DNA of 64,000 bases from Candidatus Methanomethylophilaceae archaeon (GCA_050944155.1 JBMNQN010000005.1:7390-71389), one strand, 5' to 3'; positions 5,833 to 61,938 are shown, numbered from the stretch's first letter. Numbers and translations: made by a program. The notes: a model not told the origin generated them from the letters alone.

Positions 5833-6201
5833 TCAGGCGAGTCTGTCGGTACTGATCCAGCGTCCGGTTCTTGCGTTGGCGGCGATGAATATGACGGCTA
5901 CTCCGATAACCGTCAGTATCGCTCCGATCCAGACATTGAGCGATCCGTAGATGACCGCGCCTATGGCGGAGGCGGTGGCAAGAGCGGCAAGGAAAACCGC
6001 GGATCCCCAGTTGCCCGGGCCGTGGTTCCAGAACATACCGCCGGCGGCGAAGAACAGAACGGAAACAAGCATGTTTACGCACGTACCGACTATTGCCGCG
6101 GTTTCGAAATCGAACGCGTCAATTATGCCTATGAAGGCTATGATTCCGCCGATAATGCCTAGCGCAAAACCTTTTTTCACGATTTTGGGTCTGTCTGTCA
6201 T
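5833..6201 (-). CDS. small integral membrane protein (about 4 TM, HdeD/DUF308-like composition)
   Basis: 122 aa, Gly/Ala/Ile-rich hydrophobic segments (GFALGIIGGIIAFIGII, AVFLAALATASAIGAVIYG). Family call is weak. Confidence 0.55.
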   Translation of the reverse strand: MTDRPKIVKKGFALGIIGGIIAFIGIIDAFDFETAAIVGTCVNMLVSVLFFAAGGMFWNHGPGNWGSAVFLAALATASAIGAVIYGSLNVWIGAILTVIGVAVIFIAANARTGRWISTDRLA

Positions 6202-14218: not shown

Positions 14219-14250
14219 AACGTTTAAATCCACGATATCTATAATCGAAT

Positions 14251-15324: not shown

Positions 15325-15355
15325 GTCAGCCATTATATAGATATAGTTCTCTGAC

Positions 15356-19262: not shown

Positions 19263-19271
19263 GGAGAAAAA

Positions 19272-19661
19272 ATGAAGACGATAATCACCGTCGAAGAGCT
19301 TACCCAGGCGATAAGAAACGGAATTCAAGAGGCAAACTCCGAGATGGAAGAAGAGCAGGCCTACCAGCTGGTTCTTCACGTTCTCAATTTCTTCGGATAT
19401 TCGGACAGAATAATAGACAACATCCTCGAACCGGAAGACCGGGACGCGTTCTATATGCTCGAAGACGCGGGAATACTCACGACCGAGAGGGAAGAGACCA
19501 CCCTCTACGACGGAAGGGAGTGGAGAATACACTACTGGCTCTTCAGGAAAAACAGAATAGAGGAGCTCATATCCGAGACGGTGCCGAAAGAACCCGAAAA
19601 AGAAGAGGAGCAGTCTCTCTACGACGAGCTGCCCGATGACATATGGAAGAGAAGCGGCTGA
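19272..19661 (+). CDS. hypothetical acidic protein
   Basis: 129 aa with no recognised motif. Overlaps the xpd start by 19 nt. Codon usage is gene-like. Confidence 0.45.
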   Translation: MKTIITVEELTQAIRNGIQEANSEMEEEQAYQLVLHVLNFFGYSDRIIDNILEPEDRDAFYMLEDAGILTTEREETTLYDGREWRIHYWLFRKNRIEELISETVPKEPEKEEEQSLYDELPDDIWKRSG

Positions 19662-37676: not shown

Positions 37677-38687
37677 GTGCCCGCTTTGGAAATACCGGAA
37701 GAGGACGCGTCATCCGTGATACCCATGCTGATTTCTTCCGGAATCGCCGACCGCACCGCAAAAATCTCTTCGAGAGGAAATTACAGAATAGTGCCGATTG
37801 TCAGAGAAAGAATGCCGGACGCGGAAGCGCTGGGATACGGTATGACCGAAACCGAAGCGCATTCTCTGGAAAGAAGAACTCCCATGGAGCGGATTTACGA
37901 CATGCTGGCACATCTTCCTTCCGAGGTCAGGGACAGCCTTCCCAGAAAGTGGGAATACGTGGGAGAAATCGTCATTCTCAAACTCGGTAGTCCGTGCGTT
38001 CCGTACAGAGAAGAAATCGGAAAAGCGTACGCTTCCGTACTCGGAGCGTCGACGGTGTGTGCGGACATCAAAGGAATTTCAGGGGAATTCAGAAGACCCA
38101 GTACCGAAATAATATACGGCAGCACTACGGAATCGGTAAGGCTGGAAAACGGAATACTGTACGATTTCGACGTAACGGAAGTGATGTTTGCTTCCGGAAA
38201 CACGGACGAAAGAATGCGCATGAGAAACACCGACTGCAAGGGGGAAACGGTTGTGGACATGTTCGCGGGAATAGGCTATTTCACGCTCCCCATAGCCAAG
38301 TATTCCGGCGCGAGAAGGGTATTCGCGTGCGAGAAAAATCCCGATTCCTACGGATACCTTCTGAAAAACATAAAACTCAACGGAGTATCCGACACAGTGA
38401 TTCCGATTCTGGGTGACAACCGGTACATTCCCGGGAAGAAATTTGCCGATAGGATACTCATGGGATACGTTCAGAAAACTTCGGAATTCGTTCCCAAAGC
38501 ATTGGAAATGATACGTCCGGGGGGAATAATCCATTACCACGATACTTTCGCGGTCGGAACCCAGGAACGGAGAATAGACGAAATATTTTCCGGACTGTGC
38601 GGATACGAAGTACTGGGTATAAGGGAAGTGAAATCCTTCGCCCCCTCCGTTTCCCATTATGTGGCGGACATCAGAATTTCAGACTGA
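37677..38687 (+). CDS. Trm5/Taw2 (TYW2)-family tRNA methyl/aminocarboxypropyl transferase
   Basis: 336 aa with a Met-10+ like core (VVDMFAGIGYFTLPIA, ACEKNP). Confidence 0.7.
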   Translation: MPALEIPEEDASSVIPMLISSGIADRTAKISSRGNYRIVPIVRERMPDAEALGYGMTETEAHSLERRTPMERIYDMLAHLPSEVRDSLPRKWEYVGEIVILKLGSPCVPYREEIGKAYASVLGASTVCADIKGISGEFRRPSTEIIYGSTTESVRLENGILYDFDVTEVMFASGNTDERMRMRNTDCKGETVVDMFAGIGYFTLPIAKYSGARRVFACEKNPDSYGYLLKNIKLNGVSDTVIPILGDNRYIPGKKFADRILMGYVQKTSEFVPKALEMIRPGGIIHYHDTFAVGTQERRIDEIFSGLCGYEVLGIREVKSFAPSVSHYVADIRISD

Positions 38688-40181
38688 TTCTCCGGAACTG
38701 CAGGCCGTCAGCATAGTGTTCATGTTGCTTCTGTAAGATGCGGGGTCCGATTCTATCAGCATTTTTGCGAAAGGAACCAGATATTCCATGAAACCGGTTT
38801 CTTCCTTCGACATGGTGAAGGGGTATTTCGCCGAAGGATCGCATGCCGCGAGAAACGCCGCGGAAATCGAACGGGAGCGGCTGTCCTTTGCGAAAGAGCG
38901 GTCCAAAGAACCCAGAACGAGTTCCGCGCCTCCGACCTTTGCGGCCTTTGCCAAAGAGTCGCACATAACCGTAATCGGACCGGGTCTGCTGAAGGTCGGC
39001 AGAGCACCGGAAACATCCGCCAGAACATATCTCTTTCTCGCATCCGCCAGAACGTCCGAGGGAACGCTTTTGGAAACGTCTCCCATTTCGGCCGCAATCT
39101 CCGCCGAAGTGCTGAGTTCGATTATTTTGGAGTAATTGTTTTCCCAAAGGGCCGTCAGAGCTTCGTTGGATCTTTCCGTTCTTATGACCACGGGAACGGG
39201 ATTCGCCGACAGGAATCTGCGGAGGGATTCGACATCCTCTGCGGGTCCTTTGAGTTCGGACAGGAATTTTTCCAGATTCGAACCGTAATTCTGTTTTCCT
39301 ATTATGTACGTGGCGTCGCCGCTGCTTTTCAGATCTCCCATTCCGGTTTTCATAACCGATTCTATGAGGCTTCTGTCGGTAGTTTTGCCGGCGGCATACT
39401 TTTTCAGGTCTTCCCCGGTAATCGGAACTCTTCCGTCCTCTCCTTCTTTACGGTACTTGTGTACGACCGCCACCTCGAAATCGTCCAGAGGATCGACGGC
39501 CGATATTCTGGAAATGAGGAACTGAAGGGTGGAAATGTCTTTGGCGCATTCGGAACAGATACGGACTGTTTCGCCGAGGGATTTTATTTTGATACGGACG
39601 GACGCAAGGGCTTCGTGTCCGCAGTCCAATCCGTCGTTTTTGAATTTATACGGTGTTTCGCCGAACGTATCGCAGAGATAATCTTCCGGCATGTTCCTGG
39701 TATCCGAACATACCAGGTCGTCTCCGAAAGAGTAGAGATAAAGGTGGTTTTTCTTGACGAACGTGTTGTAAAGCATCAGGCGCTTTTTCGGGTCGTTGTG
39801 ATACTGACAGCCAATCAGCTTGTCCGCACCCACCGTTCCCCTGACGGCATAAGAAATTTTTTCATCGCCCAGTTTGGCGGTTGCGAGCAGAGGAATGTTT
39901 CCGGCGGCGGCGAGAGAAATCGTTCCCGCATACGCTCTCGCTATGTCGTCTCCGCCTTTCGACGCACTCTTTATCAGCGTATCGGCGTCGCCCGCATGAG
40001 TCGAAATAATATCTATTTCTTTGAAAACTTTGTCGAAATGGCATTTCCTGCAGTTTCCCGCGCACATGGGTCTCAAAATCCCGGGATTCGCCGCCAGCTC
40101 CGAAGAACAATCCAAGAGTTCGTCTTCCAATCTTTTGGAAGTGTGGCGTACACCTCTCATCCTGACGCGTTTCCTTGCCAT
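38679..40181 (-). CDS. uncharacterised 500-aa protein with Cys motifs
   Basis: Long ORF with gene-like codon usage. Basic N-terminus, CAGNCRKCH and CSEC motifs. I recognise no family. It is divergent from the RNase III gene. Confidence 0.6.
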   Translation of the reverse strand: MARKRVRMRGVRHTSKRLEDELLDCSSELAANPGILRPMCAGNCRKCHFDKVFKEIDIISTHAGDADTLIKSASKGGDDIARAYAGTISLAAAGNIPLLATAKLGDEKISYAVRGTVGADKLIGCQYHNDPKKRLMLYNTFVKKNHLYLYSFGDDLVCSDTRNMPEDYLCDTFGETPYKFKNDGLDCGHEALASVRIKIKSLGETVRICSECAKDISTLQFLISRISAVDPLDDFEVAVVHKYRKEGEDGRVPITGEDLKKYAAGKTTDRSLIESVMKTGMGDLKSSGDATYIIGKQNYGSNLEKFLSELKGPAEDVESLRRFLSANPVPVVIRTERSNEALTALWENNYSKIIELSTSAEIAAEMGDVSKSVPSDVLADARKRYVLADVSGALPTFSRPGPITVMCDSLAKAAKVGGAELVLGSLDRSFAKDSRSRSISAAFLAACDPSAKYPFTMSKEETGFMEYLVPFAKMLIESDPASYRSNMNTMLTACSSGESV

Positions 40182-40256: not shown

Positions 40257-40754
40257 ATGGATTGTGAGGAACTGCACGAAAGAAACGTAAGGGAGTTCCT
40301 GGCAAAACCCCCGTTCGGATACCGGAACATTCCCTCCGGACAAATCGGACTGTTCGCTTCCGCTTTCGTGCACGACAGCTATTCCAACGAATCGGGAGCA
40401 ATCAGCAACGAACGCCTCGAATTTCTCGGTGACGCGGTTCTGGAACTGGCGGCCTGCCGTTACGTGTACTCCCTGACGGATTACGGCGAAGGAAAAATGA
40501 CCGATTTCAAGCAGAGCATAGTATGCAACCGCAGAATTTCGGAATCTTTGATTTCCTACGGTTTGGATATCGACGGCATAATGATGGTGGGCAACGGTCA
40601 CAGAGATTAGGTTACCGGAATTCCGATTGTGAACGAAAACATGAGGGCGGACGCTTTTGAGGCACTGCTTGCCGCAATATATCTGACGTACGGTTTCGAA
40701 GAAGTTTTCAGAATAGTCCGGGATATTCTGATCGATCCGAAAAGGAACGGTTAA
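40257..40754 (+). CDS. rnc: mini RNase III (no dsRBD) interrupted by an in-frame TAG at 40608-40610
   Basis: ATG 40257 ... NERLEFLGDAVLEL (signature motif) ... GNGHRD-TAG-VTGIP...RADAFEALLAAIYL ... TAA 40752-40754, all in one frame. The alternative reading is a pseudogene. Confidence 0.6.
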
Positions 40755-40794: not shown

Positions 40795-41718
40795 GTGACG
40801 GCAGCAGAGAAAACGGCAGAAGACATAAAAAGCATGAAAATCCGCGGTGCGGGGAGAATTGCCCGCGCATCCGCCGCGGCGATGGGAGACTTTGCGGAAA
40901 ATTACACGGGCGGCAGTCTGGAAGATTTCCGTAAAGAAGCCGGGAAGAACGCAGAGATACTCATAGCCTCCCGTCCCACTGCGGTATCCCTCTGGAACGG
41001 CGTCAAAGCGTCGATGAAGGGACTCGAGGACGCTTCCGATCTGAACGAGGCGAAGGAACTCGTACGCAGAAACTCGGAAGCATTCGTCAAAGCCTCGTCC
41101 GAAGCCGTGGACAGGATAGCGAAAATAGGCGCCAAGAGAATCGAATCCGGCGACGTCGTGATGACCCACTGCAACAGCAGTGCGGCTCTGGGCGTAATCA
41201 AGGAAGCGCACAGGCAGGGAAAGGAATTCGAAGTCTACGCGACCGAGTCCCGTCCATGGAGGCAGGGAATACTGACGGTCAGAGAACTTGCCGCCGAAGG
41301 AATCCCCGTCACGATAATCATAGACAGCGCCGTGAGAACCGTTATGAAAAAGACCGACAAAGTTTTCGTGGGAGCCGATACGATAACTTCGCACGGCGCA
41401 CTGGTAAACAAAATCGGGACGTCACAGCTGGCACTTGCTGCCCACGAAGCCCGCGTTCAGTTTTACGTATGCAGCGAAACGTACAAATTTTCGCCTGCGA
41501 CGATTTTCGGAGATCTGGTCACCATAGAAGAAAGAGATACCGGGGAAGTGGTGCGCGACGGAGAGATCCCCGATTCCGTGAAGATATTCAATCCTGTGTT
41601 CGACAGTACTCCGGCGGCATACATCGACGCAATCATAACCGAAGTGGGGGTAATCCACCCCGGCTCCGTTTACGAGATAATGGTCGGACAACTGGGAAGA
41701 AATATATTCGGAGAGTGA
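40795..41718 (+). CDS. ribose-1,5-bisphosphate isomerase (eIF-2B alpha/beta/delta-like, e2b2)
   Basis: 307 aa with a GTG start. IKSMKIRGAGRIARA, SRPTAVSL and GADTITSHGALVNKIGT. It is followed directly by form III RuBisCO and AMP phosphorylase. Confidence 0.8.
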   Translation: MTAAEKTAEDIKSMKIRGAGRIARASAAAMGDFAENYTGGSLEDFRKEAGKNAEILIASRPTAVSLWNGVKASMKGLEDASDLNEAKELVRRNSEAFVKASSEAVDRIAKIGAKRIESGDVVMTHCNSSAALGVIKEAHRQGKEFEVYATESRPWRQGILTVRELAAEGIPVTIIIDSAVRTVMKKTDKVFVGADTITSHGALVNKIGTSQLALAAHEARVQFYVCSETYKFSPATIFGDLVTIEERDTGEVVRDGEIPDSVKIFNPVFDSTPAAYIDAIITEVGVIHPGSVYEIMVGQLGRNIFGE

Positions 41719-41722
41719 AAAT

Positions 41723-42964
41723 ATGACGGAATATTCTTATCTGCATTTGGGAGACGAAGCGGACCCGCATACCGACGTGGTCTGCAGATATAAAGTAACA
41801 ACCGACCTGCCAATCGAAAAGGCGGCGGAAGCCATAGCGGCGGAACAGTCCACCGGAACGTGGACGGGAATATCGACCCTCACGGGCTCCATTCTGGAAA
41901 AGTACGGCGCAAGAGTTCTTGCCATAGAGGGAAACGAAGTAACCGTGGCGTTCCCGGACGCGGATTTCAGCATCGATGTGGGAGGAGTTCCGCAGATACT
42001 CAGCGTCATTGCGGGAAACCTCTTCGGCCTGGAAGCGCTGAAAGGCGTAAGGCTCGAAGACGTCGAATTTCCGACGAGCATAAAGTCCCAGTACAAAGGT
42101 CCCAGGTTCGGAGACGAAGGACTCCGTAAAATACTGAACAGACCCGAGAAGCCGCTTATCGGAACCATAGTCAAACCGAAGATAGGGCTTTCTCCGAAGG
42201 AAACCGCCAAGTACGTTTACGAAGCGGGCGCGGGAGGGCTCACCAACGGCAAGGACGACGAGACGCTCGTGAATCAGAAATTCTGTCCCATGCAGGACCG
42301 TACCGTCGCAATCGCCGAATCCCTGGACAGACTGGCGTCAGAGGGCCACAGAATGATTCACGCAATCAACGTGAGCACAAACGGCGACAAAATTCTGGAA
42401 GTCGCGGAAAAAGCTCAGGAATGGGGAGCCTCGCAACTCATGGTGGACGTTATCACCTGCGGATTCGGAGCGGTTCAGGCTCTGGCCGAAGACCCGTCGA
42501 TAAAGGTCCCGATTCACGTTCACAGAACCATGCACGGAGCCATGACCAAAAATCTGGACCACGGAATCGCCATGCTTCCTATGGTGAAACTGGTAAGAAT
42601 GTGCGGAGGAGACGCTCTCCACATAGGAACCCTCGGAGCCGGAAAGATGACCGGCGACGTGAAAGGCGACCACGACAACCTGGACGCATGCCTCGATCCG
42701 TCCCAGCCCTACAGAAAAGTCATGCCCGTATGTTCCGGCGGAGTTTATCCCGGAATGCTGGAGAAGATGGTGAAATCTTCCGGATTCAACGTTCAGATAC
42801 AGGCGGGAGGAGGCGTTGCCGGCCATCCCGGAGGAGTGAGAAAGGGCGCAATGGCAATGAGCCAGGCGATAGATTCCATATTCGACGGAATCCCCCTGAA
42901 AGAATACGCAAAAACCCACAAAGAGCTGTCTCAGGCTCTCGACAAATGGGGACTGAAAGAATGA
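41723..42964 (+). CDS. rbcL: ribulose-bisphosphate carboxylase, form III large subunit
   Basis: 413 aa with GTIVKPKIGLSP, GGLTNGKDDETL (KDDE), HVHRTMHGA and GGGVAGHPGG. Confidence 0.9.
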   Translation: MTEYSYLHLGDEADPHTDVVCRYKVTTDLPIEKAAEAIAAEQSTGTWTGISTLTGSILEKYGARVLAIEGNEVTVAFPDADFSIDVGGVPQILSVIAGNLFGLEALKGVRLEDVEFPTSIKSQYKGPRFGDEGLRKILNRPEKPLIGTIVKPKIGLSPKETAKYVYEAGAGGLTNGKDDETLVNQKFCPMQDRTVAIAESLDRLASEGHRMIHAINVSTNGDKILEVAEKAQEWGASQLMVDVITCGFGAVQALAEDPSIKVPIHVHRTMHGAMTKNLDHGIAMLPMVKLVRMCGGDALHIGTLGAGKMTGDVKGDHDNLDACLDPSQPYRKVMPVCSGGVYPGMLEKMVKSSGFNVQIQAGGGVAGHPGGVRKGAMAMSQAIDSIFDGIPLKEYAKTHKELSQALDKWGLKE

Positions 42965-44475
42965 AGCTTAAAGTGAAATATTACGACCTGGACTCGTCCG
43001 AACCCACGGTACTGCTCCATGACGACGACTGCATAGAAATCGGAGTCAAAGAGAACGACAGGGTGAAGATAGTCAACGGAAAAGGAATGGCCAGGGCTTT
43101 GGTCAGCAGATCCGACACCCTTGTTGAAAAGGGAACTATTATGATGCCCGGAAATCTGATGAAGATTACCGGTTCGGAGGAAGGCGACACCGTAGACGTC
43201 GATTACGCTTCGGCACCGGAATCCGTGAGAACCATCCGCAAGAAAATGGATGGTCTGGCACTTACCGACGACGAGATTCACGGCGTAGTTATGGACATAC
43301 TGGAAAACAAGCTCTCCAAAATCGAAGTATCCGCCTGGCTCACCGCCCTCTACATAAACGGAATGAACATCGACGAGATTGCCGACTTTGCGTCTTCCAT
43401 GGTGGACACGGGAGAACGCATAATCTTCGACAGAAAACCCGTATTCGACTTCCACAGCATGGGCGGAGTTCCCGGAAACAAGGTGACCCCGATAGTGGTT
43501 TCCATAGTCGCCGCCGCGGGACTCATGCTTCCGAAAACGTCCTCCCGTGCGATAAGCAGCGCATGCGGAACTTCCGATTTCGTGGAAACTTTCTGCGATG
43601 TGGCTCTTTCCGCCGAACGTCTCAAAGACATCGGAGAACGCGTCGGAGGAACTCTGGCCTGGGGCGGAGCGATCAATCTGGCACCGGTGGACGACATCGT
43701 CATTAAAATCGAACATCCGCTGGGAATAAACCCCAGACCCCAGATGCTTGCGTCGATACTCAGCAAAAAAATGGCAATCGGTGCGGAGTATCTTCTCATG
43801 GACATTCCCATGGGAGCGGGTACGAAAGTTCCCGACATAGAGACGGCACGTGCGTACGCCAGGGATTTCATGGATCTGGGCGAGAAGCTCGGTATGCACA
43901 TAGAGTGCGCAATCACTTACGCGGACCAGCCTGTAGGAAACGCCATAGGCCCCAATCTGGAAGCCCGGGAATGCATCCGCATACTGGAAGGAGACCCGCA
44001 CCCAGCCAGCGTTGCTGAGAAAGCCTGCGACCTGGCCGGAATAATTCTGGAAATGGGAGGAATACGCGAAGGAAAGACAAGAGCCAGAGAGCTGCTTGCA
44101 TCCGGCGCGGCCATGAAGAAATTCAGAGAAATCGTTAAGGCTCAGGGCGGAGACTACGATATCAAATCCGACGACCTGAAACCCGGAAAGTTCAAAACCG
44201 AAATCAAATCGACCAAGAGCGGGTACGTGCACGCGATAAGAAACAAGGATATCGTGGCCATCGCAAAGGCAGCGGGTTCCCCCAACGACAAAGGCGCTGG
44301 ATTGATTCTGTTCCGTAAAAAGGGACAGAGAGTGGAGGCGGGAGACGTCCTCATGGAAATATACGCCGACAACAAGGCGAAACTGGAACGCGCGAAAGAC
44401 CTTGCCGAAAGATACCAGCCGATGGATATCGAAGGAATGCTTCTGAAGCACATCACCGTGCCCAAAGCCAGGTAA
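42961..44475 (+). CDS. deoA: AMP phosphorylase (thymidine-phosphorylase family with N-terminal extension)
   Basis: Starts at internal ATG 42961 (ATGA overlap with the rbcL stop). 504 aa with HSMGGVPGNKVT and SSRAISSACGTSD. Confidence 0.85.
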   Translation: MKLKVKYYDLDSSEPTVLLHDDDCIEIGVKENDRVKIVNGKGMARALVSRSDTLVEKGTIMMPGNLMKITGSEEGDTVDVDYASAPESVRTIRKKMDGLALTDDEIHGVVMDILENKLSKIEVSAWLTALYINGMNIDEIADFASSMVDTGERIIFDRKPVFDFHSMGGVPGNKVTPIVVSIVAAAGLMLPKTSSRAISSACGTSDFVETFCDVALSAERLKDIGERVGGTLAWGGAINLAPVDDIVIKIEHPLGINPRPQMLASILSKKMAIGAEYLLMDIPMGAGTKVPDIETARAYARDFMDLGEKLGMHIECAITYADQPVGNAIGPNLEARECIRILEGDPHPASVAEKACDLAGIILEMGGIREGKTRARELLASGAAMKKFREIVKAQGGDYDIKSDDLKPGKFKTEIKSTKSGYVHAIRNKDIVAIAKAAGSPNDKGAGLILFRKKGQRVEAGDVLMEIYADNKAKLERAKDLAERYQPMDIEGMLLKHITVPKAR

Positions 44476-51332: not shown

Positions 51333-51695
51333 ATGTCACTCGTTACGTACTACATTCCGCTGGTAGTGCTTGCCGCAGTATGTCTAGGGTTTGCACCGTT
51401 GGCGTGGCTGGTGTCGAGGTATATCAGACCTACGAAAACAACATCCTGGATGGAGTCAACTTATGAGTGCGGGACGGAACCGATTGGAGATGCACATGTT
51501 CAGTTCAGGTTCCAACACTACGCCTTTGCAATCATTTTCATCATTTTCGACCTTGTTGTGACGTTCTTGATGGTATGGGTGCTGGCGTTTTCCGGTTTCT
51601 CGACCGCAGCCCGCCTCTGGATGCTCATCTTCATGGGTGTAATGTTGCTGGGAGTCGCCTACGCGCTCAAGAAGGAGGAAAAAATATGGATATGA
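51333..51695 (+). CDS. nuoA: Nuo/Fpo-like complex subunit A
   Basis: Starts at internal ATG 51333. 120 aa, 3 TM, with YECGTEP and FIIFDLVV motifs. Confidence 0.9.
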   Translation: MSLVTYYIPLVVLAAVCLGFAPLAWLVSRYIRPTKTTSWMESTYECGTEPIGDAHVQFRFQHYAFAIIFIIFDLVVTFLMVWVLAFSGFSTAARLWMLIFMGVMLLGVAYALKKEEKIWI

Positions 51696-52249
51696 GTCTC
51701 TACCCCCACGCGGTAGCCATGAGCGCCGAGGAGTTTATGGATTGGTCTACGGCCATCATAAACGATCTTCTCAGCGCAGGAACCAAACGAACCGTAGACA
51801 AACTCACCGGACCTATCTGGACCTGGGCTATGAAGAACTCCATGCACCCCCTTCACTGGGGCCTTGCGTGCTGTGCTCTGGAAATGGCATCGGCCTCCGC
51901 GTCGAGACACGACGCCGAACGTCTGGGTATTATTTACCGTTCTTCTCCGAGACAGACCGATATCCTTCTTATCAACGGCTGGATTTCAAAGAAAGTCCGC
52001 CCCTCCATAAGGCGTCTCTACGAACAGATGCCCAACCCCAAGTGGGTCGTGGCCATGGGAGAATGCGCCATATCCGGTGGACCTTGGTTCGATTCTTATA
52101 ACTGCGTACAGGGAACCGATCAGATTGTTCCGGTGGACCTTTTCATCCCCGGATGCCCCGTGAAGCCCGACGCGATGATTGACGGATTCATGCTTCTTCA
52201 GAAGAAAATCGGAGACTACTTCCAGAGAGGAGTATTCATGGAGGACTGA
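51686..52249 (+). CDS. nuoB: Nuo/Fpo-like complex subunit B
   Basis: Starts at internal ATG 51686, with SD GGAGG 8 nt upstream. GLACCALEM, MGECAISGGP and PGCPVKP (N2 cluster cysteines). Confidence 0.9.
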   Translation: MDMSLYPHAVAMSAEEFMDWSTAIINDLLSAGTKRTVDKLTGPIWTWAMKNSMHPLHWGLACCALEMASASASRHDAERLGIIYRSSPRQTDILLINGWISKKVRPSIRRLYEQMPNPKWVVAMGECAISGGPWFDSYNCVQGTDQIVPVDLFIPGCPVKPDAMIDGFMLLQKKIGDYFQRGVFMED

Positions 52250-52251
52250 AA

Positions 52252-52725
52252 ATGGATACGGAAGCCATTTATCAGCAACCTACCGTGGGAGAAATCCAGA
52301 CCCTCCTGGAATCCAAATTCCCCGGTGTCAAAGTTTACAAAACAGAAACCAGACGCATATACGCGGAACTGGCGGATAAAAAAGACGTTTTCGACGTGTG
52401 CAACTACATACACGACAACCTGACCTTCGAACACTGCTCGGTGGTCATGGGTGCGGACATGGGCGACCATCTCGAAGTCATCTACCTTCTCACCAATTAT
52501 TACAGCGGAACGGTGATAGAGCTGGATGTAAAACTTCCTATGGACGACCTTCACGTAAGCACCGTGTCGTACATATGGGAAGGAGCCAACTGGCACGAGA
52601 GGGAAACATACGAACTGTTCGGAATCATTTTCGACGGACACCCCAAGCTCGAAAGGCTGCTCACGCCGGATACTTATAACTTCTTCCCTTTCAGAAAATC
52701 TTACAAGCTAAGGGGGCAGGAATGA
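52252..52725 (+). CDS. nuoC: Nuo/Fpo-like complex subunit C
   Basis: 157 aa with WHERETYELFGIIFDGHP. Confidence 0.9.
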   Translation: MDTEAIYQQPTVGEIQTLLESKFPGVKVYKTETRRIYAELADKKDVFDVCNYIHDNLTFEHCSVVMGADMGDHLEVIYLLTNYYSGTVIELDVKLPMDDLHVSTVSYIWEGANWHERETYELFGIIFDGHPKLERLLTPDTYNFFPFRKSYKLRGQE

Positions 52726-52726
52726 A

Positions 52727-53893
52727 ATGGTCGTACCCAACACGATTGACACTTTCGACGTACCTCCCGAACTGAAACCCGGCGAAAAGAGAATGGAAAC
52801 GGACTCCATGTGGATTTACATGGGTCCCCAGCACCCCTTCTCCCACGGACTGTGGACTCTTAAAGTCAAAGTCGACGGAGAAGTGGTCACGGATGCGGAG
52901 GCGATTATAGGATATCTCCACCGCGGATGGGAGAAAGAAACCGAGAACAGAACATACCCCAGGATTATCCCTATGGCAGACCGTCTCTGCTATTCGGCTT
53001 CCATGACTTATACCCACCTTTACTGCATGACGGTGGAGAAAGCTCTGGGTATAGACATTCCGGAGAAGGCCAAGTACATCAGAATCGTCGCCGACGAGAT
53101 CTGCCGCATTCAGTCCCACCTTATGTGGCTGGCGGCGGTGGGAACCGACCTCGGAAACCTTACCATCTTCCTTTGGGGAATGAGGGAAAGGGAATTCTGG
53201 CTGGATCTCAACGTAAGACTCTGCGGTCAGAGGATGACCACCAACTATACCCGTATAGGCGGTGTGAGAAACGATACCACGGAACTTTTCGACAGGGACG
53301 TCATGAGATGTACCGAGCGCTTCGAAAAGAGACTCTGGGACTTCGTGGGAATGATTGATGACAGCGCCGCTTTCGTGGGCAGGATGAAAGGCATAAGCTA
53401 CATGACCCGCGAGCAGTGCGCCAACCTGGGAATAACCGGGCCGGCCATGAGAGGCTGCGGACTCGATTTCGATGCCCGTCGCGACGATCCTTACGACAAC
53501 TACGACAAAATCGATTTCGAAGTTCCCGTGCTTACAACCGGGGACACCTATGCCAGGTACATGATAAGAATCGAAGAGATGTTCCAGTCCTGCGAAATAA
53601 TAAGACAGGCCGTCCGCAAAATCAGGGCTCTCGGCAAGAACGCCCCCTACAGGGTCAAGGTACCTTCCAAAGTACCTGCCGGCAGAGCGTTCACGAGACT
53701 CGAGGACCCCCGCGGAGAGTCCATAATGTATCTGATTTCCGACGGAACCGACAAACCCTACAGACTGAAGGTCCGTGCGCCTCTGTTCACGAACATAAGC
53801 GCATCCAGGCCCATGGTTCAGGGTATCAAAGTTGCGGACGTCCCCGCCGTCATGGCGATGATTGACGTCTGCATGGGAGAAACGGACAGGTGA
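52727..53893 (+). CDS. nuoD: Nuo/Fpo-like complex subunit D
   Basis: 388 aa with MGPQHPFSHG, GYLHRGWEK and a C-terminal DVCMGETDR. Confidence 0.95.
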   Translation: MVVPNTIDTFDVPPELKPGEKRMETDSMWIYMGPQHPFSHGLWTLKVKVDGEVVTDAEAIIGYLHRGWEKETENRTYPRIIPMADRLCYSASMTYTHLYCMTVEKALGIDIPEKAKYIRIVADEICRIQSHLMWLAAVGTDLGNLTIFLWGMREREFWLDLNVRLCGQRMTTNYTRIGGVRNDTTELFDRDVMRCTERFEKRLWDFVGMIDDSAAFVGRMKGISYMTREQCANLGITGPAMRGCGLDFDARRDDPYDNYDKIDFEVPVLTTGDTYARYMIRIEEMFQSCEIIRQAVRKIRALGKNAPYRVKVPSKVPAGRAFTRLEDPRGESIMYLISDGTDKPYRLKVRAPLFTNISASRPMVQGIKVADVPAVMAMIDVCMGETDR

Positions 53894-53897
53894 TATC

Positions 53898-55067
53898 ATG
53901 GGATTGAAAGACTGGATTACATTTACGGACCCCCTGTCAAACCCGTACTATCCTTACGGGGACACATACAACATAGGTTACGACCTCTGTTACAAAATTT
54001 GGGAAATACTCGGAGGATTCGTAGCCTGGCTCTTCAATTTGCTGTTCCCGGGCAACGGATTTTCCACGTTCCTCGTGTCAGACGAAGTGGTCAACGCGTT
54101 TGCGATAATTCTGTTCGCACTCGTTGTGTTCCTCGTCATATTTACCGGTGTTCTGATTTCTTTGTGGCAGGAACGTAAGTTCCTGGGAAGGTTTATGGAC
54201 AGAAGGGGAACCATGATAGGTATGAAGGGTTTCCTTCAGTGCGTCGCCGACGGTTTCAAAACCTTCATGAAAGAAAACACCCTGCCCCGCAAGATTGACA
54301 AGATGACCTACATGTGGACGGTCACCCTGATTGTAGGAACGTCCGTTCTGGTGGCAACCATGCTGCCTCTGTCCGATCGTTTCTTCATAGTCAACTACGA
54401 CTCGGGTCTGCTTATCGTGATGGCGATTTACGCGCTGGCACCTTTCTTCATACTTGTTTCGGGCTGGGCTCAGAACAACAAATATTCGCTTATAGGCGGA
54501 ATGAGAGCCGCGCAGTCGATGATTGCTTACGAAATACCCATGCTGATAACCGTGTGTTCCGTGGCTCTCCTCGCCGGCAGTTTCAACATAGGAGAAATAG
54601 TGGCGGCTCAGAACGAGACCACCTGGTACATTATCCCGCTGGCACTCGGATTCATAGTGTTCTTTACATGTTCTCTTGCTGAATCCGAACGTTCTCCTTT
54701 CGACCTCGCGGAAGCAGAATCCGAATTGGTCGAAGGATGGCAGACGGAATACGCGGGAATGAAATGGGGACTCATAATGCTGGGAGACTATCTCAGAGGA
54801 TTCGCGTCCTGTGCGATGCTGTCCATACTGTTCCTGGGAGGATGGAACATAGCTCCGTTCCTTTCCGACGAAGTCAACGCATTCTTCCCCGAAATAATAC
54901 AGCTGCTTAAGGGATGGATTATGTTCGGACTCATGATCTGGGTCAGAGCCGCTCTCCCCCGTGTCAGAATCGATCAGATTCTCAACCTGGGATGGAAGGT
55001 CCTCATGCCGCTGTCCGTGGTTAACCTGGTGATAGCCGTTCTGCTCGTGAATGGAGGCGTGTTCTGA
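53898..55067 (+). CDS. nuoH: Nuo/Fpo-like complex subunit H
   Basis: Starts at internal ATG 53898. 389 aa polytopic protein with ERKFLGRFMDRRG and AESERSPFDLAEAESELVEGW. Confidence 0.95.
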   Translation: MGLKDWITFTDPLSNPYYPYGDTYNIGYDLCYKIWEILGGFVAWLFNLLFPGNGFSTFLVSDEVVNAFAIILFALVVFLVIFTGVLISLWQERKFLGRFMDRRGTMIGMKGFLQCVADGFKTFMKENTLPRKIDKMTYMWTVTLIVGTSVLVATMLPLSDRFFIVNYDSGLLIVMAIYALAPFFILVSGWAQNNKYSLIGGMRAAQSMIAYEIPMLITVCSVALLAGSFNIGEIVAAQNETTWYIIPLALGFIVFFTCSLAESERSPFDLAEAESELVEGWQTEYAGMKWGLIMLGDYLRGFASCAMLSILFLGGWNIAPFLSDEVNAFFPEIIQLLKGWIMFGLMIWVRAALPRVRIDQILNLGWKVLMPLSVVNLVIAVLLVNGGVF

Positions 55068-55807
55068 TGGCACTGAAATATCTCGACAAATATCCTAAAA
55101 ATCCCGCCAGGAAACTGTGGGTTCTCAAGCCTATGTGGGTATCGATAAAACTGTTCTTCAAGACGGTGTTCCACAGGCCTGTGACCATTCTGTATCCTTA
55201 CGAGAAGGAATGGATTCCCGACAACTACCGCGGACGTCCCGGACTCAGGTTCGACATGTGCGTCGGCTGCGGAGTGTGCGTCAGAATGTGCCCCACGGAC
55301 TGCATAAAGCTCGTGGAAGTTGACGACGACAACGGAAAGAAAGTGATGAGGCCCCAGATATTCGTCGGAAGATGCGCGTTCTGCGGCTACTGTTCCGAAT
55401 ACTGTCCCACCAACGCCATGACGGTCACTCCGGAATACGAGCTTGCGGAGCTGTTCAAGAAGGACATGATATACGATCCCCGCAGGCTGCACTTCGAAGA
55501 CACCACTCCCGGAATGGAAGTACACCTGGAGATGACCCTCCAGTCCGACATCGATGCGGGCAACCCCGACAAGAGGGTAAAGCCCTACGAAGTCGACTAC
55601 CCGGTCGTCGACGAAGATCTGTGCATCGGATGCAAAAAGTGCCAGAGAGTATGTCCGGTGGACGCCGTAGAGATGGTGGAAAAAGGTGTGAACGCCAAAG
55701 GGAGACCCAAGCTGGTGCCCGTGTTCGACATCGAGAAGTGTATAGTCTGCAACAACTGCGTAATAGACTGTCCCAAATCCGTGATTCACATAGAGGAGGT
55801 GCTCTGA
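55067..55807 (+). CDS. nuoI: Nuo/Fpo-like complex subunit I with an additional C-terminal 2x[4Fe-4S] ferredoxin domain
   Basis: 246 aa. The canonical part has CVGCGVCVRMCP and CAFCGYCSEYCP. An extra roughly 100 aa carries CIGCKKCQRVCP and CIVCNNCVIDCP. Confidence 0.9.
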   Translation: MALKYLDKYPKNPARKLWVLKPMWVSIKLFFKTVFHRPVTILYPYEKEWIPDNYRGRPGLRFDMCVGCGVCVRMCPTDCIKLVEVDDDNGKKVMRPQIFVGRCAFCGYCSEYCPTNAMTVTPEYELAELFKKDMIYDPRRLHFEDTTPGMEVHLEMTLQSDIDAGNPDKRVKPYEVDYPVVDEDLCIGCKKCQRVCPVDAVEMVEKGVNAKGRPKLVPVFDIEKCIVCNNCVIDCPKSVIHIEEVL

Positions 55808-56140
55808 GTGTCGGTTATAGGAAATGCATGGAACGAGTTCGTAAACTATCTGCAGTACCTCTGCGACAACGTGGATCTGATTATCTTCCTGGCCATAGCG
55901 GCCATAGGGATAACCGCCGCGCTGTTCGTCGTAATAGACAAGGAAGCGATGCACAGCGCGTTCTACCTTGCGCTGACGTTCGTCATGGTTGCCGTGGTCT
56001 TCATAATTCTGGAGGCGGAATTCATGGCAATCGTGCAGATGTTCGTTTACGTCGGTGCGATAACGATACTCTTCGCGTTCAGCATCATGCTGACCAGAAG
56101 ATACATCATGAAATCGGGAGGCGATAACGATGATGAGTAA
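55808..56140 (+). CDS. nuoJ: Nuo/Fpo-like complex subunit J, N-terminal half (split gene)
   Basis: 110 aa with a GTG start. AEFMAIVQMFVYVGAITILFAFSIML is the NuoJ signature. Confidence 0.85.
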   Translation: MSVIGNAWNEFVNYLQYLCDNVDLIIFLAIAAIGITAALFVVIDKEAMHSAFYLALTFVMVAVVFIILEAEFMAIVQMFVYVGAITILFAFSIMLTRRYIMKSGGDNDDE

Positions 56141-56423
56141 GAGAAAGATCATAGGAATCGCGACGGCCGTTCTGGTCCTCGCGATTCTCACCCTCGCGAT
56201 ATTCGTGACGGGATGGGGAGACATAGTCGCATACAGCGGCCCGGTGTCCCTTCCCACGTTCAAACCCATGGTCGGAGGCGCCCTCTTGGAGGGGTCTCTG
56301 TCGTACGTGGTCTTCGAGGTTTACGGCCCTATTGTGGCTCTGCTCTCGACGATTATGTTCGGGGCCATGATAGGTGCCATATGTGTGGCAAAAGAGGAGG
56401 TCGATGACGATGATTCCGATTGA
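56130..56423 (+). CDS. nuoJ: Nuo/Fpo-like complex subunit J, C-terminal half (split gene)
   Basis: 97 aa with SD GGGAGG 8 nt upstream. ...VVFEVYGPIVALLSTIMFGAMIGAI matches the NuoJ C-terminal helix. Overlaps the first half by 11 nt. Confidence 0.75.
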   Translation: MMSKRKIIGIATAVLVLAILTLAIFVTGWGDIVAYSGPVSLPTFKPMVGGALLEGSLSYVVFEVYGPIVALLSTIMFGAMIGAICVAKEEVDDDDSD

Positions 56424-56712
56424 GTACATACTCATGTTCTCGGCTATCCTGTTCGTGATAGGCATATACGGCATAATGACGAAAAACAACGCAATCATTG
56501 TGCTCATGTGCATAGAACTTGTGCTGAACGCGGCAAACATCAACTTTGTTGCGTTTGCGGCATACAATGCGGCAATCATGGGTCAGGTTTTCGTACTGTT
56601 TACCGTGGCGGTGGCTGCCTCCGAAGTTGCGGTGGGAATAGCCATTCTGCTTAACGTTTACAAACTGAAGAAAACGACCGTGATAGACGATCTGACGGAA
56701 TTGAGGTGGTAA
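56404..56712 (+). CDS. nuoK: Nuo/Fpo-like complex subunit K
   Basis: Starts at internal ATG 56404. 102 aa, 3 TM, with CIELVLNAANINFVAF and AASEVAVGIAIL. Confidence 0.9.
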   Translation: MTMIPIEYILMFSAILFVIGIYGIMTKNNAIIVLMCIELVLNAANINFVAFAAYNAAIMGQVFVLFTVAVAASEVAVGIAILLNVYKLKKTTVIDDLTELRW

Positions 56713-56713
56713 A

Positions 56714-58765
56714 ATGTTCATAGAGTATACATGGCTCATACCGGTGGTTCCGCTAATCTTCTTCGTAATCATCGGTCTTGTGGGCAAGAAAACCCCCTAC
56801 CAGGGAGGGCTCATAGCCATATTGGGAGCTACGATATCGTTCCTGATTTCCCTGATGGTAGTATACGAATTCCTGACGGGACCGGATTATAACGGAGGTA
56901 TCGGTTACGTAACCCAGTCGATCGAATGGTTCGCCCTGCCCGGCGGATTCTCGCTTACTCTGGGTTACTACGTGGACGGACTCACATGTCTCATGCTGAT
57001 GTTCTCCTCGGCGATATCCCTCCTTATCTTCATTTACTCGATAGGGTACATGGGAGGAGAGGGCCCCAGGAGACGCAGGTACTTCGCGGAAGTCAGCCTC
57101 TTCCTTTCCGGAATGCTCGGACTCATCATAGCCAACAACTACCTGATGATGTTCGTCTTCTGGGAACTGATGGGTCTGTGTTCCTACCTGCTCATAGGAT
57201 TCTGGAGCTTCAGACACCCCGAAGGGGACGACGCTTCCGACAACGCGGCGTCGGCCGCCAAGAAAGCGTTCATAGTCACCCGTATGGGAGATGTGTCCTT
57301 TATGGCAGGACTCTTCGTGATGCTTTACGCGTTCAGGAGTCTCGACTTCGTCAACACTTTCGACCCGGCAAACATAGCTGCGGTGAACCCGGACCTGATC
57401 ATCATTTCCGCGCTCCTCCTCTTCGGCGGAGCAATAGGAAAGAGCGCTCAGTTCCCCCTGCACGACTGGCTGCCGGATGCGATGGCCGGTCCGACCACCG
57501 TTTCCGCTTTGATTCACGCGGCGACGATGGTTAAGGCCGGTGTGTACCTCGTTGCGAGAAGCTACCCTCTGTTTGTTCAGTCCGCGAACGTAATGCTGTT
57601 TGTGGGCGTCATCGGAGGAGTGACCGCCATACTGACGGCTTCCATGGCTCTCTCCAACTACAACATCAAGAAAGTCCTGGCGTTCTCCACGCTGTCCCAG
57701 CTTGGATACATGATTATGGCGCTGGGAGCCGGAGGATATCTGATGGCTCTCGGAATCGAACAGAACGACGTCGCCCTTATCGCGGCGGGTGCCGCGGGTT
57801 ACACCGCGGGAGTGTTCCACATGTTCAACCACGCCTTCTTCAAAGCGCTCCTCTTCCTCGGTTCCGGTTCGGTGATACACTCGGTGGGAACCGAAGACAT
57901 GCGCGCCATGGGAGGACTCGGCAAAAAGATGAAAATAACGTCTTTCACGATGCTGATAGGTTCGATGTCGATTGCGGGATTCCCCTTCTTCAGCGGATTC
58001 TGGTCCAAAGATCTGGTTCTCGAGTCCGTCATGAAGGCGTCCGAATACGGTCCCGAGGGATACATATTCGCGATAGTCTGGGTTCTCGGAATCATCACGG
58101 CTTTCATGACCGCCTTCTACATGTTCAGAATGTGGTACATGACCTTCTCCGGACCCAAAGGCCTCACTTACGAGAGCAGTCACGGAGAGTCTTCCAAATC
58201 CATGACCGTACCCCTCGTCATACTGGCGGTGATGGCGTTCGCTTCGGGATTCCTCATACTGATCGGACTTGACGGAATAATCACCATATCGCCCGACTCT
58301 TTCGGAGCGTTCGTGGTCGGAATGGTGGAAGGACAGGGTGCAATGCATTACATAGAAGAGATATTCCTCAACCCCTACACGTATCTGACAATCGCTCTGA
58401 CGATTATCGGAATACTGATAGCGTGGTCCATGTACAGCAGGTTCAGCATCAATCCCGGAAGATTCAACAAAGAAGGAGAATCGGGACTGTACCGGGCACT
58501 TCAGAACAGATGGATGTTCCCCCAGCTTTACAACTGGATTTCGTGGAAGTTCGGATACGGAATAGCCAAGGGAGTCGACTACGTCGACAGGAACATAATC
58601 GACGGAGCCGTGAACGGATTGTCCAGCGCGGTTGTCGGATCGGGAGAGACCGTGAAGTACGGTCAGACCGGAAACGTGGGCAATTACGCGTCCATCATTA
58701 TGATCGGCGTTTCGGCGGTGTTCGTTGCGATAATGGTTCTCCTGTACTTCTTCGGAGGTATGTGA
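56714..58765 (+). CDS. nuoL: Nuo/Fpo-like complex subunit L (antiporter-like)
   Basis: 683 aa with WELMGLCSYLLIGFW, GKSAQFPLHDWLPDAMAGPTTVSALIHAATMV and a long C-terminal extension. Confidence 0.95.
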   Translation: MFIEYTWLIPVVPLIFFVIIGLVGKKTPYQGGLIAILGATISFLISLMVVYEFLTGPDYNGGIGYVTQSIEWFALPGGFSLTLGYYVDGLTCLMLMFSSAISLLIFIYSIGYMGGEGPRRRRYFAEVSLFLSGMLGLIIANNYLMMFVFWELMGLCSYLLIGFWSFRHPEGDDASDNAASAAKKAFIVTRMGDVSFMAGLFVMLYAFRSLDFVNTFDPANIAAVNPDLIIISALLLFGGAIGKSAQFPLHDWLPDAMAGPTTVSALIHAATMVKAGVYLVARSYPLFVQSANVMLFVGVIGGVTAILTASMALSNYNIKKVLAFSTLSQLGYMIMALGAGGYLMALGIEQNDVALIAAGAAGYTAGVFHMFNHAFFKALLFLGSGSVIHSVGTEDMRAMGGLGKKMKITSFTMLIGSMSIAGFPFFSGFWSKDLVLESVMKASEYGPEGYIFAIVWVLGIITAFMTAFYMFRMWYMTFSGPKGLTYESSHGESSKSMTVPLVILAVMAFASGFLILIGLDGIITISPDSFGAFVVGMVEGQGAMHYIEEIFLNPYTYLTIALTIIGILIAWSMYSRFSINPGRFNKEGESGLYRALQNRWMFPQLYNWISWKFGYGIAKGVDYVDRNIIDGAVNGLSSAVVGSGETVKYGQTGNVGNYASIIMIGVSAVFVAIMVLLYFFGGM

Positions 58766-58766
58766 T

Positions 58767-60335
58767 ATGGAAGCAATACAGACACTGTTCGCGGACATAC
58801 CCGTACTGACACTGCTCCTTCTGATACCCCTGATAGGGTCTTTCGCGACCCTGTTCCTTGCGGGCGGATCGAGACAGAAATACGCCAAACACGTGGCAGG
58901 AATATTCTCGGGAATAACCCTGATCCTTGCGTTCCTGCTGATGTTCATGGACGACTTCTCCGTACTTTCGGAGAATTATCTGTGGATAGACGCGGCCAAC
59001 ATAAGAATCTCGTACATACTGGCCCTGGACGGCCTCAGTCTGCTGATGGTCTTCCTGACCGCGCTGCTGGTGTTCCTGGTTGTTGTGTACTCCGCCGGAG
59101 AAAACGACAGAGCCAACTATTTCCACACGCTGATTATGGCCATGGAAGTCGGATTGATGGGCGTATACCTGTCCGCCGATTACTTCCTGTTCTACATCAT
59201 GTGGGAAGTTACTCTGATTCCGATGTACTTCATGATCTCCTGGTACGGAGGTCCCAGAAGACACTACTCGGCGATTAAGTTCTTCATCTACACGCACGTG
59301 GCAAGTCTCGTTATGCTCATCGGTATATTCGCCCTGGTCTTCCAGGCCGCGACTGTATCCGGCTTTGCAATAGCGGACTTTTCGTTTGCTGCGGTGGAAG
59401 CCGCATCCGGACTGTTCGGCGAGGTGTTCCAGATCCTTGTGTTCACCATGCTGTTCTTCGGATTCGCGGTGAAAATGCCGGTTGTGCCGTTCCATACATG
59501 GCTGCCCGATGCCCACGTGGAAGCACCCACTGCGGGTTCCGTCCTTCTGGCCGGAGTCATGCTTAAGATGGGTTCCTACGGTATAATCAGAATCGCCCTG
59601 GCGGCTCTGCCCGAGGGAGCTCTCTGGTGGGCCGAGGGAATGCTGGTCGTCGCTCTTCTGGCTATAGTCTACGGAGCGTACGCATGCATAGCGCAGACCG
59701 ATCTCAAGAAGATGGTTGCATATTCGTCCATAAACCACATGGGAATGGTGTTGCTGGGTATCGCGGCCTCGCTTCTTTATGTGAAACACACGGCCGTACC
59801 CGTTCCGGAAATTGCAAGAATCGGAGTGGAGTTCGCAGTCTTCCAGATGTTCGCCCACGGTCTCGTGACCGCAGTTCTCTTCATGGTCTGCGGATTCGCC
59901 GGACACGCGCTCGGAACCAGGGAGATGCCGATGCTCGGAGGTCTCGCGGGAAAGATGCCGGCCTTCGCCACGTTCATGATGATCGGATTCATGGCGTCTC
60001 TGGGTCTTCCCGGTCTCGTCGGATTCTGGGGAGAGTTCGGAGTGATATACTCGTTCTATATCGCTGCGGACGCCATGGGCCACATATGGCTGATTGTGTT
60101 CTGTCTCCTGTCCATAGTTCTTAATGCAGGCTTCTATACATGGGCCATGCAGAAAGTGCTGTTCGGAAGGGAAACGGACAAGATCGACATGTCGAAAGTT
60201 CACGATGTGAGCAGGTCCGAAGGATTCGCTCTTGCGGTTCTGTGCGTCCTGATAGCTCTCTTCGGAATATGGCCCGACTTTGCGTTGAGCTTCATACACG
60301 ACTTTGCGGCTGTGTTCGCAATACCGGGGGTGTGA
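58767..60335 (+). CDS. nuoM: Nuo/Fpo-like complex subunit M (antiporter-like)
   Basis: 522 aa with FAVKMPVVPFHTWLPDAHVEAPTAGSVLLAGVMLK. Confidence 0.95.
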   Translation: MEAIQTLFADIPVLTLLLLIPLIGSFATLFLAGGSRQKYAKHVAGIFSGITLILAFLLMFMDDFSVLSENYLWIDAANIRISYILALDGLSLLMVFLTALLVFLVVVYSAGENDRANYFHTLIMAMEVGLMGVYLSADYFLFYIMWEVTLIPMYFMISWYGGPRRHYSAIKFFIYTHVASLVMLIGIFALVFQAATVSGFAIADFSFAAVEAASGLFGEVFQILVFTMLFFGFAVKMPVVPFHTWLPDAHVEAPTAGSVLLAGVMLKMGSYGIIRIALAALPEGALWWAEGMLVVALLAIVYGAYACIAQTDLKKMVAYSSINHMGMVLLGIAASLLYVKHTAVPVPEIARIGVEFAVFQMFAHGLVTAVLFMVCGFAGHALGTREMPMLGGLAGKMPAFATFMMIGFMASLGLPGLVGFWGEFGVIYSFYIAADAMGHIWLIVFCLLSIVLNAGFYTWAMQKVLFGRETDKIDMSKVHDVSRSEGFALAVLCVLIALFGIWPDFALSFIHDFAAVFAIPGV

Positions 60336-60338
60336 TTG

Positions 60339-61847: not shown

Positions 61848-61861
61848 AACAAACTTTAAAC

Positions 61862-61893
61862 TCCGCCCTTCGGGGCGGAACCAATATTTTTTC
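61862..61893 (+). terminator. operon terminator: hairpin TCCGCCC-TTCG-GGGCGGA followed by a T-run
   Basis: Perfect 7-bp stem with a TTCG loop at 61862-61879, starting 15 nt after the nuoN stop. TTTTTTCTT begins at 61887. Confidence 0.65.
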
Positions 61894-61938
61894 TTACTGG
61901 CTATACACGCCTGCAATTTCTCCCGAAAAAGGTTAAGT

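Follow-up and report, generated by a model that had tools for sequence, protein, structure and literature searches.

Does the amber codon in the middle of a small ribonuclease III (RNase III) gene end the protein, or is it read as an amino acid? The gene in question lies on the plus strand, at positions 40257–40754, of a 64-kb stretch of archaeal DNA (64,000 nt; hereafter, the window). It comprises 165 codons followed by TAA, encodes a dsRBD-less RNase III-domain protein, and carries TAG as codon 118. Broadly, there are two answers: (i) the codon is decoded, as pyrrolysine (Pyl) or otherwise, or (ii) UAG terminates, and the allele is a segregating null or young pseudogene, encoding an inactive 117-aa product without D132 and E135, that has drifted or hitch-hiked in a dispensable gene. 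The first-pass annotation of the window had posed much the same choice, between a decoded UAG and a fresh nonsense mutation. Each turns out to be partly true: the codon is a young C-to-T change, and yet decoding is the reading that we favour.

The reading frame opens at ATG 40257 and encodes the RNase III signature (catalytic motif 1, NERLEFLGDAVLEL; 40407–40448, residues 51–64) upstream of the in-frame TAG at 40608–40610. Beyond the TAG, the frame stays open for 47 sense codons (40611–40751), which retain the behaviour of coding sequence and include catalytic motif 2, RADAFEALLAAIYL (40644–40685), a motif that is made only with read-through. The true terminator of the full-length gene, TAA at 40752–40754, lies 40 nt ahead of the next gene (GTG 40795); termination at TAG 40608 would leave a 184-nt gap within an otherwise tightly packed run of genes. 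In the predicted read-through protein, residue 118 is preceded by GHRD and followed by VTGIPIVNENMR. Both parts of this layout, from the start codon to the TAG and from the TAG to the TAA, had been described at the outset, and coordinates and translation agree with that description.

Several features of the neighbourhood are observations in their own right. Divergent from the RNase III gene is a gene for a 500-aa Cys-rich protein without a Pfam match (38679–40181, minus strand); its position is kept in all strains, and it holds seven of the 24 non-synonymous polymorphisms of the 20-kb region. Directly 3' of the RNase III gene is a run of three genes (40795–44475, plus strand) of the eIF-2B family, the RuBisCO large-subunit homologs and the glycosyl-transferase-family-3/PYNP_C type, the synteny of which is kept in the sister species (locus L011). 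We take these three to be ribose-1,5-bisphosphate isomerase, type III RuBisCO and AMP phosphorylase, that is, archaeal AMP salvage by the pentose bisphosphate pathway. A complex I-like run of about 11 genes, which we read as Fpo-like, occupies 51333–61847 (plus strand); its first gene is FpoA (51333–51695), and Pfam confirms 20K, 30K, 49K, NADHdh (ND1-type), 2x[4Fe-4S], chain-6 and two antiporter-type subunits. Candidatus Methanomethylophilaceae archaeon is the name attached to the closest homologs, and the window contains, besides the Fpo-like complex, other genes typical of the order. A frameshift that was suspected in the window's ThiI-like gene proved to be an effect of start-codon calling. 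In the sister species (L011 8390–11000; ENA ERZ2647912, coverage 2.3x), several genes intact in the window (THF dehydrogenase/cyclohydrolase, TiaS-like) are called as short fragments, and one 116-aa ORF, without a Pfam match, ends in TAG; assembly error at low coverage is the probable cause.

What would be lost if the TAG terminates? A single PF14622 match crosses the codon (81.3 bits, cutoff 35), with residues 32–158 corresponding to profile positions 4–124 of 128, and the protein also matches PF00636 (63.8 bits, cutoff 27). Scored alone, the N-terminal and C-terminal halves give 55 and 24 bits, respectively, each fitting its own part of the profile. Orthologs of 156–175 aa align with the full-length protein from end to end and share its Met-Asp start; E52, E55, D59, D132 and E135 are invariant in all 24 archaeal orthologs aligned. 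The signature motif ERLEFLGD, with the first catalytic acid pair, is encoded before the TAG. The second acid pair (DxFEA) lies on the same chain outright in an allele with CAG at codon 118, described below, and in the TAG allele only with read-through. Since D132 and E135 are invariant and encoded 3' of the TAG, termination would cost the enzyme its second catalytic acid pair, as the first-pass annotation had claimed. Truncation thus removes half of the active site, leaving read-through as the only route to RNase III activity.

For the Gln allele, AF2 gives a confident model (pLDDT 93.2), whose Foldseek matches include the bacterial RNase III structures 1o0w, 3o2r, 2a11 and 1jfz (TM 0.65–0.72). 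Helix 127–145 of the model carries D132 and E135, and the ordered surface loop directly ahead of it (109–126) contains residue 118. By alignment, the loop may correspond to the RBM4 region, which in bacterial RNase III is short and non-conserved (PMC3867540).

The gene had been called a mini RNase III, a label that suits its architecture better than its ancestry. No dsRBD (PF00035) match was obtained for the 165-aa protein, whereas bacterial homologs do carry PF00035; this domain layout is shared with Mini-III (MrnC), which likewise has no dsRBD. The single nuclease domain and the ERLEFLGD and DxFEA motifs are common to Mini-III and class 1 RNase III alike, and the domains of bacterial RNase III superpose on the model with the same fold (TM about 0.7). 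Among PDB sequence matches at E <= 1e-3, however, there are no Mini-III chains; Drosha, bacterial RNase III and Dicer are found instead. The sole NCBIfam match is TIGR02191 (canonical RNase III), at 98 bits and thus under its cutoff of 166. The sequence resembles canonical bacterial RNase III and the Drosha RIIID more than it does Mini-III. Uncertainty also attaches to the description of the gene as a housekeeping enzyme: among Archaea, RNase III occurs sporadically and has no established role, and archaeal pre-rRNA processing relies on the BHB endonuclease (PMC3867540). For these reasons a null allele is plausible, and would possibly be tolerated.

The TAG can be followed directly across assemblies. 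It is present in ten fetched contigs (L001–L010) that come from independent assemblies of different projects, carry an identical gene, and are 99.8–99.9% identical to the window over 10–20 kb. Its 117-aa product (P0002) is NCBI MGI5964803.1, from 'Candidatus Methanomethylophilaceae archaeon'. The index places it on 29 contigs, and the exact product is listed in 33 blocks of the collection searched. The sole other member of its 90% cluster, P0121, is a 165-aa protein that is identical but for Gln118. This second allele, with C in place of T at 40608 and hence CAG in place of TAG, is carried by ten further contigs (L013–L022; 99.6–99.9% identity to the window), and the SRR303096xx run series includes both alleles. 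A sequencing or assembly artefact is excluded, given that the TAG is identical in ten contigs across projects and assemblers (JGI, Logan) and that the exact 117-aa product is also recorded from NCBI and ENA. In a 6.9-kb stretch common to 16 sequences, each allele occurs on several haplotype backgrounds, and all four allele combinations with the adjacent SNPs 40186 and 40223 are observed, an argument that is the weaker for coming from metagenome consensus contigs, which are possibly chimeric.

Over the ~20 kb and 20 contigs compared, we scored 70 variants, including 39 synonymous, 24 non-synonymous and five intergenic ones. The TAG at 40608 is the sole stop-type variant; of the 70, none is a nonsense change to TGA or TAA, and none shifts the reading frame. 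Two larger strain differences were seen elsewhere. One contig (L013, NCBI JBJSVW010012281.1) has a DDE_Tnp_1 transposase gene (an IS element; 1660–2715 of the contig) inserted between genes at a site equivalent to ~32.9 kb in the window; this insertion at ~33000 is absent from the window and the other contigs. The other is an indel at ~46868 of the window, in a gene of the PTS_2-RNA (RNA 2'-phosphotransferase) family, apparently of 3 nt and in frame, to judge by the genes beyond it, whose coordinates are shifted by 3 nt.

Between species, the amber codon is not conserved. The nearest other species (the sister species; protein P0001, 82% aa identity, locus L011) has CCC (Pro) at the aligned position; in more distant orthologs the column is variable, with Pro, Lys, Val, Arg or a gap, and TAG is found in no ortholog compared. 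There is thus no sign of a functional requirement for Pyl. Because conspecific strains have CAG in an otherwise identical gene, the TAG is best described as a C-to-T mutation of the nonsense type rather than a conserved Pyl site, and the shortest mutational path, CCN to CAG to TAG, makes amber the derived state. From these comparisons, the amber codon is derived and recent, yet it is the commoner allele across independent assemblies. Position 118 itself is predicted to be tolerant, with a variable ortholog column and a loop location in a confident model.

How do these results bear on a null allele? The first-pass annotation had looked to the orthologs for signs of loss: the orthologs have sense codons or a gap at the site and conspecific strains have CAG, but the TAG copies show no further disabling lesions. 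The recency of the mutation, the existence of a CAG allele in an otherwise identical gene, and the lack of TAG in any ortholog compared would all suit a null allele. Against it are the standing of amber as the commoner allele on several backgrounds, and the absence from the 20 contigs of secondary lesions and of TGA or TAA nonsense polymorphisms. If the allele is null, decay would not yet be visible because the mutation is too recent.

We asked whether TAG serves as an ordinary terminator in this genome. A naive census of longest ORFs in the window yields two that end in TAG, both of which were rejected as antisense artefacts over real PurP and SerA genes. A codon-usage score was therefore trained on 19 publicly annotated genes around the locus and used to re-call the window. 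Of the resulting 68 genes, 53 end in TGA, 14 in TAA and one in TAG, the last being the internal TAG of the RNase III gene. FpoA, which the gene call missed, ends in TGA, and so 0/68 other genes in the 64-kb window are TAG-terminated. That no other coding sequence in the window ends in TAG, as had been noted on first reading, therefore stands once genes are called by codon usage. Of the ORFs so called, 40 are confirmed by Pfam to be housekeeping genes of the ordinary kind. When TAG is read as sense, an internal TAG turns up in just one well-scoring gene of the window, that for RNase III; apart from it there is a single, marginal ORF of 56 codons (51500–51670, minus strand), antisense to FpoA.

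The window also contains spurious antisense ORFs of up to 1072 aa opposite real genes (58698–61916, 56753–58948, 17811–19682 and 14239–15357, all on the minus strand), and at least three of its long spurious antisense ORFs end in TAG. A stop-codon census by ORF length is therefore misleading for a genome with such ORFs.

Published TAG terminator shares are 4.1% in Pyl+ Methanomethylophilaceae (median), 13.5% in Methanosarcina strains that lost Pyl, and 22% in Pyl- archaea (median; PMC12626013). The probability of finding 0/68 is 0.058, 5e-5 and 5e-8 at these three shares, respectively. In the 64-kb window, TAG is thus depleted to a degree that fits the Pyl+ median (4.1%) but not the 13.5–22% of Pyl- genomes. 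This depletion also counts against a null allele, since it argues against TAG working as a normal terminator in this genome.

The codons downstream of the TAG behave like those upstream. The in-frame codon-usage score per codon is 0.27 after the TAG versus 0.29 before it, and the other five frames downstream have scores near zero or negative. Against the sister species, dN/dS is 0.11 for codons 1–117 and 0.18 for codons 119–165, with a dS of 0.88 and no indel. Judged by these ratios, the gene is under strong purifying selection between species. The 47 post-TAG codons show zero differences among the 20 conspecific contigs, at a within-species divergence (0.1–0.4%) that is too low to test selection on them since the mutation. 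An in-frame TAG is hence followed by homologous, constrained coding sequence, the combination by which Pyl genes are recognized. The between-species constraint, together with the retention of the gene in many Methanomassiliicoccales, speaks against a dispensable gene and so against a null allele.

No local signal for recoding was found. No PYLIS-like stem-loop is seen in 120 nt spanning the TAG and its 3' side, which fold no better than shuffled sequence (MFE -21.9 kcal/mol versus a shuffle mean of -26.6 kcal/mol; z = +1.26). A 10-nt palindrome, CGGAATTCCG, to which the first-pass annotation had drawn attention, is indeed present shortly after the TAG (40616–40625, strand not applicable; with an EcoRI site inside). 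Its significance did not survive: perfect palindromes of 10 nt number 74 across the window (one per 865 nt), four of them between 40000 and 41500, and this one could form a stem of 3 bp at most. We judge it to be a chance occurrence outside any mechanism. The folding z score and the chance-level palindrome count together rule out a PYLIS-like element or the palindrome as a recoding signal. Pyl insertion needs no PYLIS-like signal (PMC12626013).

The machinery for Pyl was sought in the window and in metagenomic collections. Within the 64-kb window there are no tRNA genes, no Rfam matches, and no pylT, pylS, pylBCD or methylamine methyltransferase genes. A PylS search, with an M. alvus PylRS sequence that matched a database entry at 100% as the query, returned thousands of relatives. 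Seven PylS clusters (P0216, P0158, P0248, P0241, P0255, P0276 and P0145) belong to other species, from samples without the window species. One cluster, P0153, comes from a sample (JGI 3300062814) that also holds a 204-kb contig of the window species, and it occurs in the SRR303096xx and SRR310661xx run series, which are common to the window species; this link is one of co-occurrence and not of physical linkage. The P0153 locus has the order mtmB - pylT - pylS - pylB, with a pylT nearly identical to that of relatives.

Other routes added little. GC, GC3 and codon usage do not discriminate among the pylS candidates; no PylS was found among the NCBI accession neighbours (MGI59...); and the look-up of a 288-aa JGI gene call (P0003) gave no further samples. 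A profile search of GTDB genome contigs gave bacterial RNase III loci only, and no archaeal ones, among the matches listed. A search of metagenome contigs for an invariant 30-nt pylT block returned 31 loci, none from the window species' samples; since the P0153 locus from 3300062814 contains this block, the collection evidently does not include that sample. Methanomethylophilaceae comprise both Pyl+ and Pyl- genomes (PMC12626013). The existence of Pyl- genomes within the family, and the fact that candidate pyl genes were found by sample co-occurrence (P0153) and not in the window, are points in favour of a null allele.

Two side observations concern the pyl loci of relatives. Among those scanned, ARAGORN found tRNA-Pyl only in L023, and missed a homologous pylT upstream of pylS in L033 (~5895–5965), in L190 (394–464) and through L190–L192; automated tRNA scans thus under-report pylT in Methanomethylophilaceae. 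An in-frame TAG suspected in the pylB of relatives was traced to start-codon calling and rejected.

The reading that we prefer, and to which we assign a probability of roughly two in three, is that a Gln118-to-amber change arose in a Pyl-decoding archaeon, is read at least partly as Pyl, and is nearly neutral. The host would be a gut-type methanogen of the Methanomethylophilaceae (Methanomassiliicoccales) in which UAG stands for pyrrolysine and TAG has been nearly purged from the terminators. In such a cell, a C-to-T transition in the gene for the small dsRBD-less RNase III would have replaced CAG (Gln) by TAG at codon 118. Pyl-tRNA(Pyl) and release factor would compete at every UAG, no cis element being necessary, and the amber allele would yield full-length enzyme with Pyl118, probably plus some of the inactive 117-aa product. 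Because full-length enzyme with Pyl118 in a tolerant loop would still be made, the substitution would be nearly neutral; it could then have drifted to become the commoner allele, with the Gln allele persisting.

We infer the insertion of Pyl and the activity of the read-through product from several lines of evidence. Decoding is favoured over loss because the amber allele is the commoner one and lies on several haplotypes, 0/68 other genes end in TAG, and the gene is under strong purifying selection. The intact downstream half, and the lack of any other disruptive polymorphism, add to the preference. So do the taxonomic placement, the precedents discussed below and the mtmB-pylT-pylS-pylB locus (P0153) that shares a sample with the species.

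Among the alternatives, a null allele fares best. On the evidence weighed above, with the recency of the mutation and the sporadic nature of archaeal RNase III on one side and the avoidance of TAG terminators and the constraint on the gene on the other, we consider it possible but unlikely.

A variant of decoding holds that the amber allele is kept by selection, such that the yield of active RNase III tracks the supply of Pyl-tRNA and CAG/TAG is a balanced polymorphism. A 'read-through sensor' along similar lines has been proposed for Methanosarcina. If true, dsRNA processing would be coupled to methylamine metabolism, with one constitutive and one Pyl-tuned allele. We regard this as improbable.

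Read-through may alternatively occur without pyrrolysine, by a near-cognate tRNA (e.g., tRNA-Gln, which would restore Gln) or another suppressor tRNA. The ancestral codon, CAG, is one base from UAG, and the TAG is followed by G, a base that follows the stop in 13/67 other called genes. Near-cognate read-through normally amounts to a few per cent at most. Further, the window contains no suppressor tRNA, nor any tRNA, and read-through of this kind fails to explain the complete avoidance of TAG terminators; we think it very improbable. Least credible is a split enzyme, in which the 117-aa N-terminal product reassembles with a separately initiated C-terminal peptide: a 37-aa ORF from ATG 40641 is present in some annotations (L002, L004, L010) and a 41-aa ORF from GTG 40629 in the ORF listing, but the CAG allele is a single chain in sibling strains, the break would fall in the loop directly ahead of the catalytic helix of the model, and we know of no RNase III domain that is split in this way.

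Pyl decoding, as we prefer to read the locus, has relatives in the literature. The initial expectation that decoding here would lie far outside known Pyl contexts does not hold, since non-methyltransferase TAG genes have been catalogued (PMC4153887) and studied in Methanosarcina (PMC12626013). Borrel et al. (2014) list 16 TAG-interrupted genes other than methyltransferases in Ca. M. alvus (Table 7; PMC4153887); these candidates, recognized as here by homology that resumes beyond an interrupting TAG, include Cas1, MtxX and DGGGP synthase, and RNase III is absent from the list (PMC4153887). With 1.6% TAG terminators in Ca. M. alvus, amber mutations were argued to be stable in such a background (PMC4153887). 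The RNase III gene resembles the Ca. M. alvus candidates in organism family and in having an in-frame TAG in an ordinary conserved gene with TAG-free homologs. TAG terminators are near-absent in both (1.6% there, 0/68 here), and the logic is the same: amber mutations are stable where Pyl-tRNA is always present. There are two differences. Firstly, unlike in the Ca. M. alvus study, sense (CAG) and amber alleles segregate here within one species. Secondly, the pyl genes of Ca. M. alvus are in the genome itself, whereas for the window species the candidate pyl genes (P0153) are ones that co-occur with it in a sample.

In Methanosarcina acetivorans, Pyl is said to occur in the tRNA-His guanylyltransferase Thg1, in work by Heinemann dating from 2009. 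The Pyl of Thg1 has been cited as neutral drift, and in the M. acetivorans sensor kinase RdmS, no cis element is needed for UAG to give two products, one with Pyl and one terminated (PMC12626013). As in the RNase III gene, the UAG of Thg1 and RdmS falls on a residue that is not catalytic, in an enzyme other than those for methylamines, and needs no cis element. Read-through in these two proteins is experimental and belongs to another methanogen order, whereas that of RNase III is predicted from sequence; furthermore, truncation of RNase III takes half of the active site.

The comparison with the methylamine methyltransferases MtmB, MtbB and MttB is mainly one of contrasts. Their in-frame UAG is read by tRNA(Pyl), and in the relatives fetched their genes adjoin pylT-pylS. 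Their TAG is conserved across orders and their Pyl is catalytic, with a downstream PYLIS structure in mtmB. In the RNase III gene, by contrast, the TAG varies within one species, occupies a loop position that is itself variable, and has no structure downstream. Pyl-type TAGs in ordinary genes are thus known already, and Shalvarjian et al. (2025; PMC12626013) predicted internal-TAG ORFs for all archaea in GTDB that are Pyl+, in a list that may contain RNase III. Sense and amber alleles segregating in natural populations we have not seen described.

The RNase III amber allele leaves the current understanding of the genetic code unchanged. For annotation it is a warning: standard pipelines give the commoner allele as a truncated, 117-aa 'ribonuclease III domain-containing protein'. 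In the CAG and TAG alleles, nature supplies two matched versions of the gene with which to gauge how efficiently UAG is read through, what its ambiguity costs, and how well the RNA-binding loop of a nuclease tolerates Pyl. If the amber codon is indeed read as Pyl, an RNA-processing nuclease would join the ordinary proteins that gain pyrrolysine by drift in TAG-poor methanogens and, with Gln and amber alleles of an otherwise identical gene coexisting in wild populations, the process would have been caught under way.
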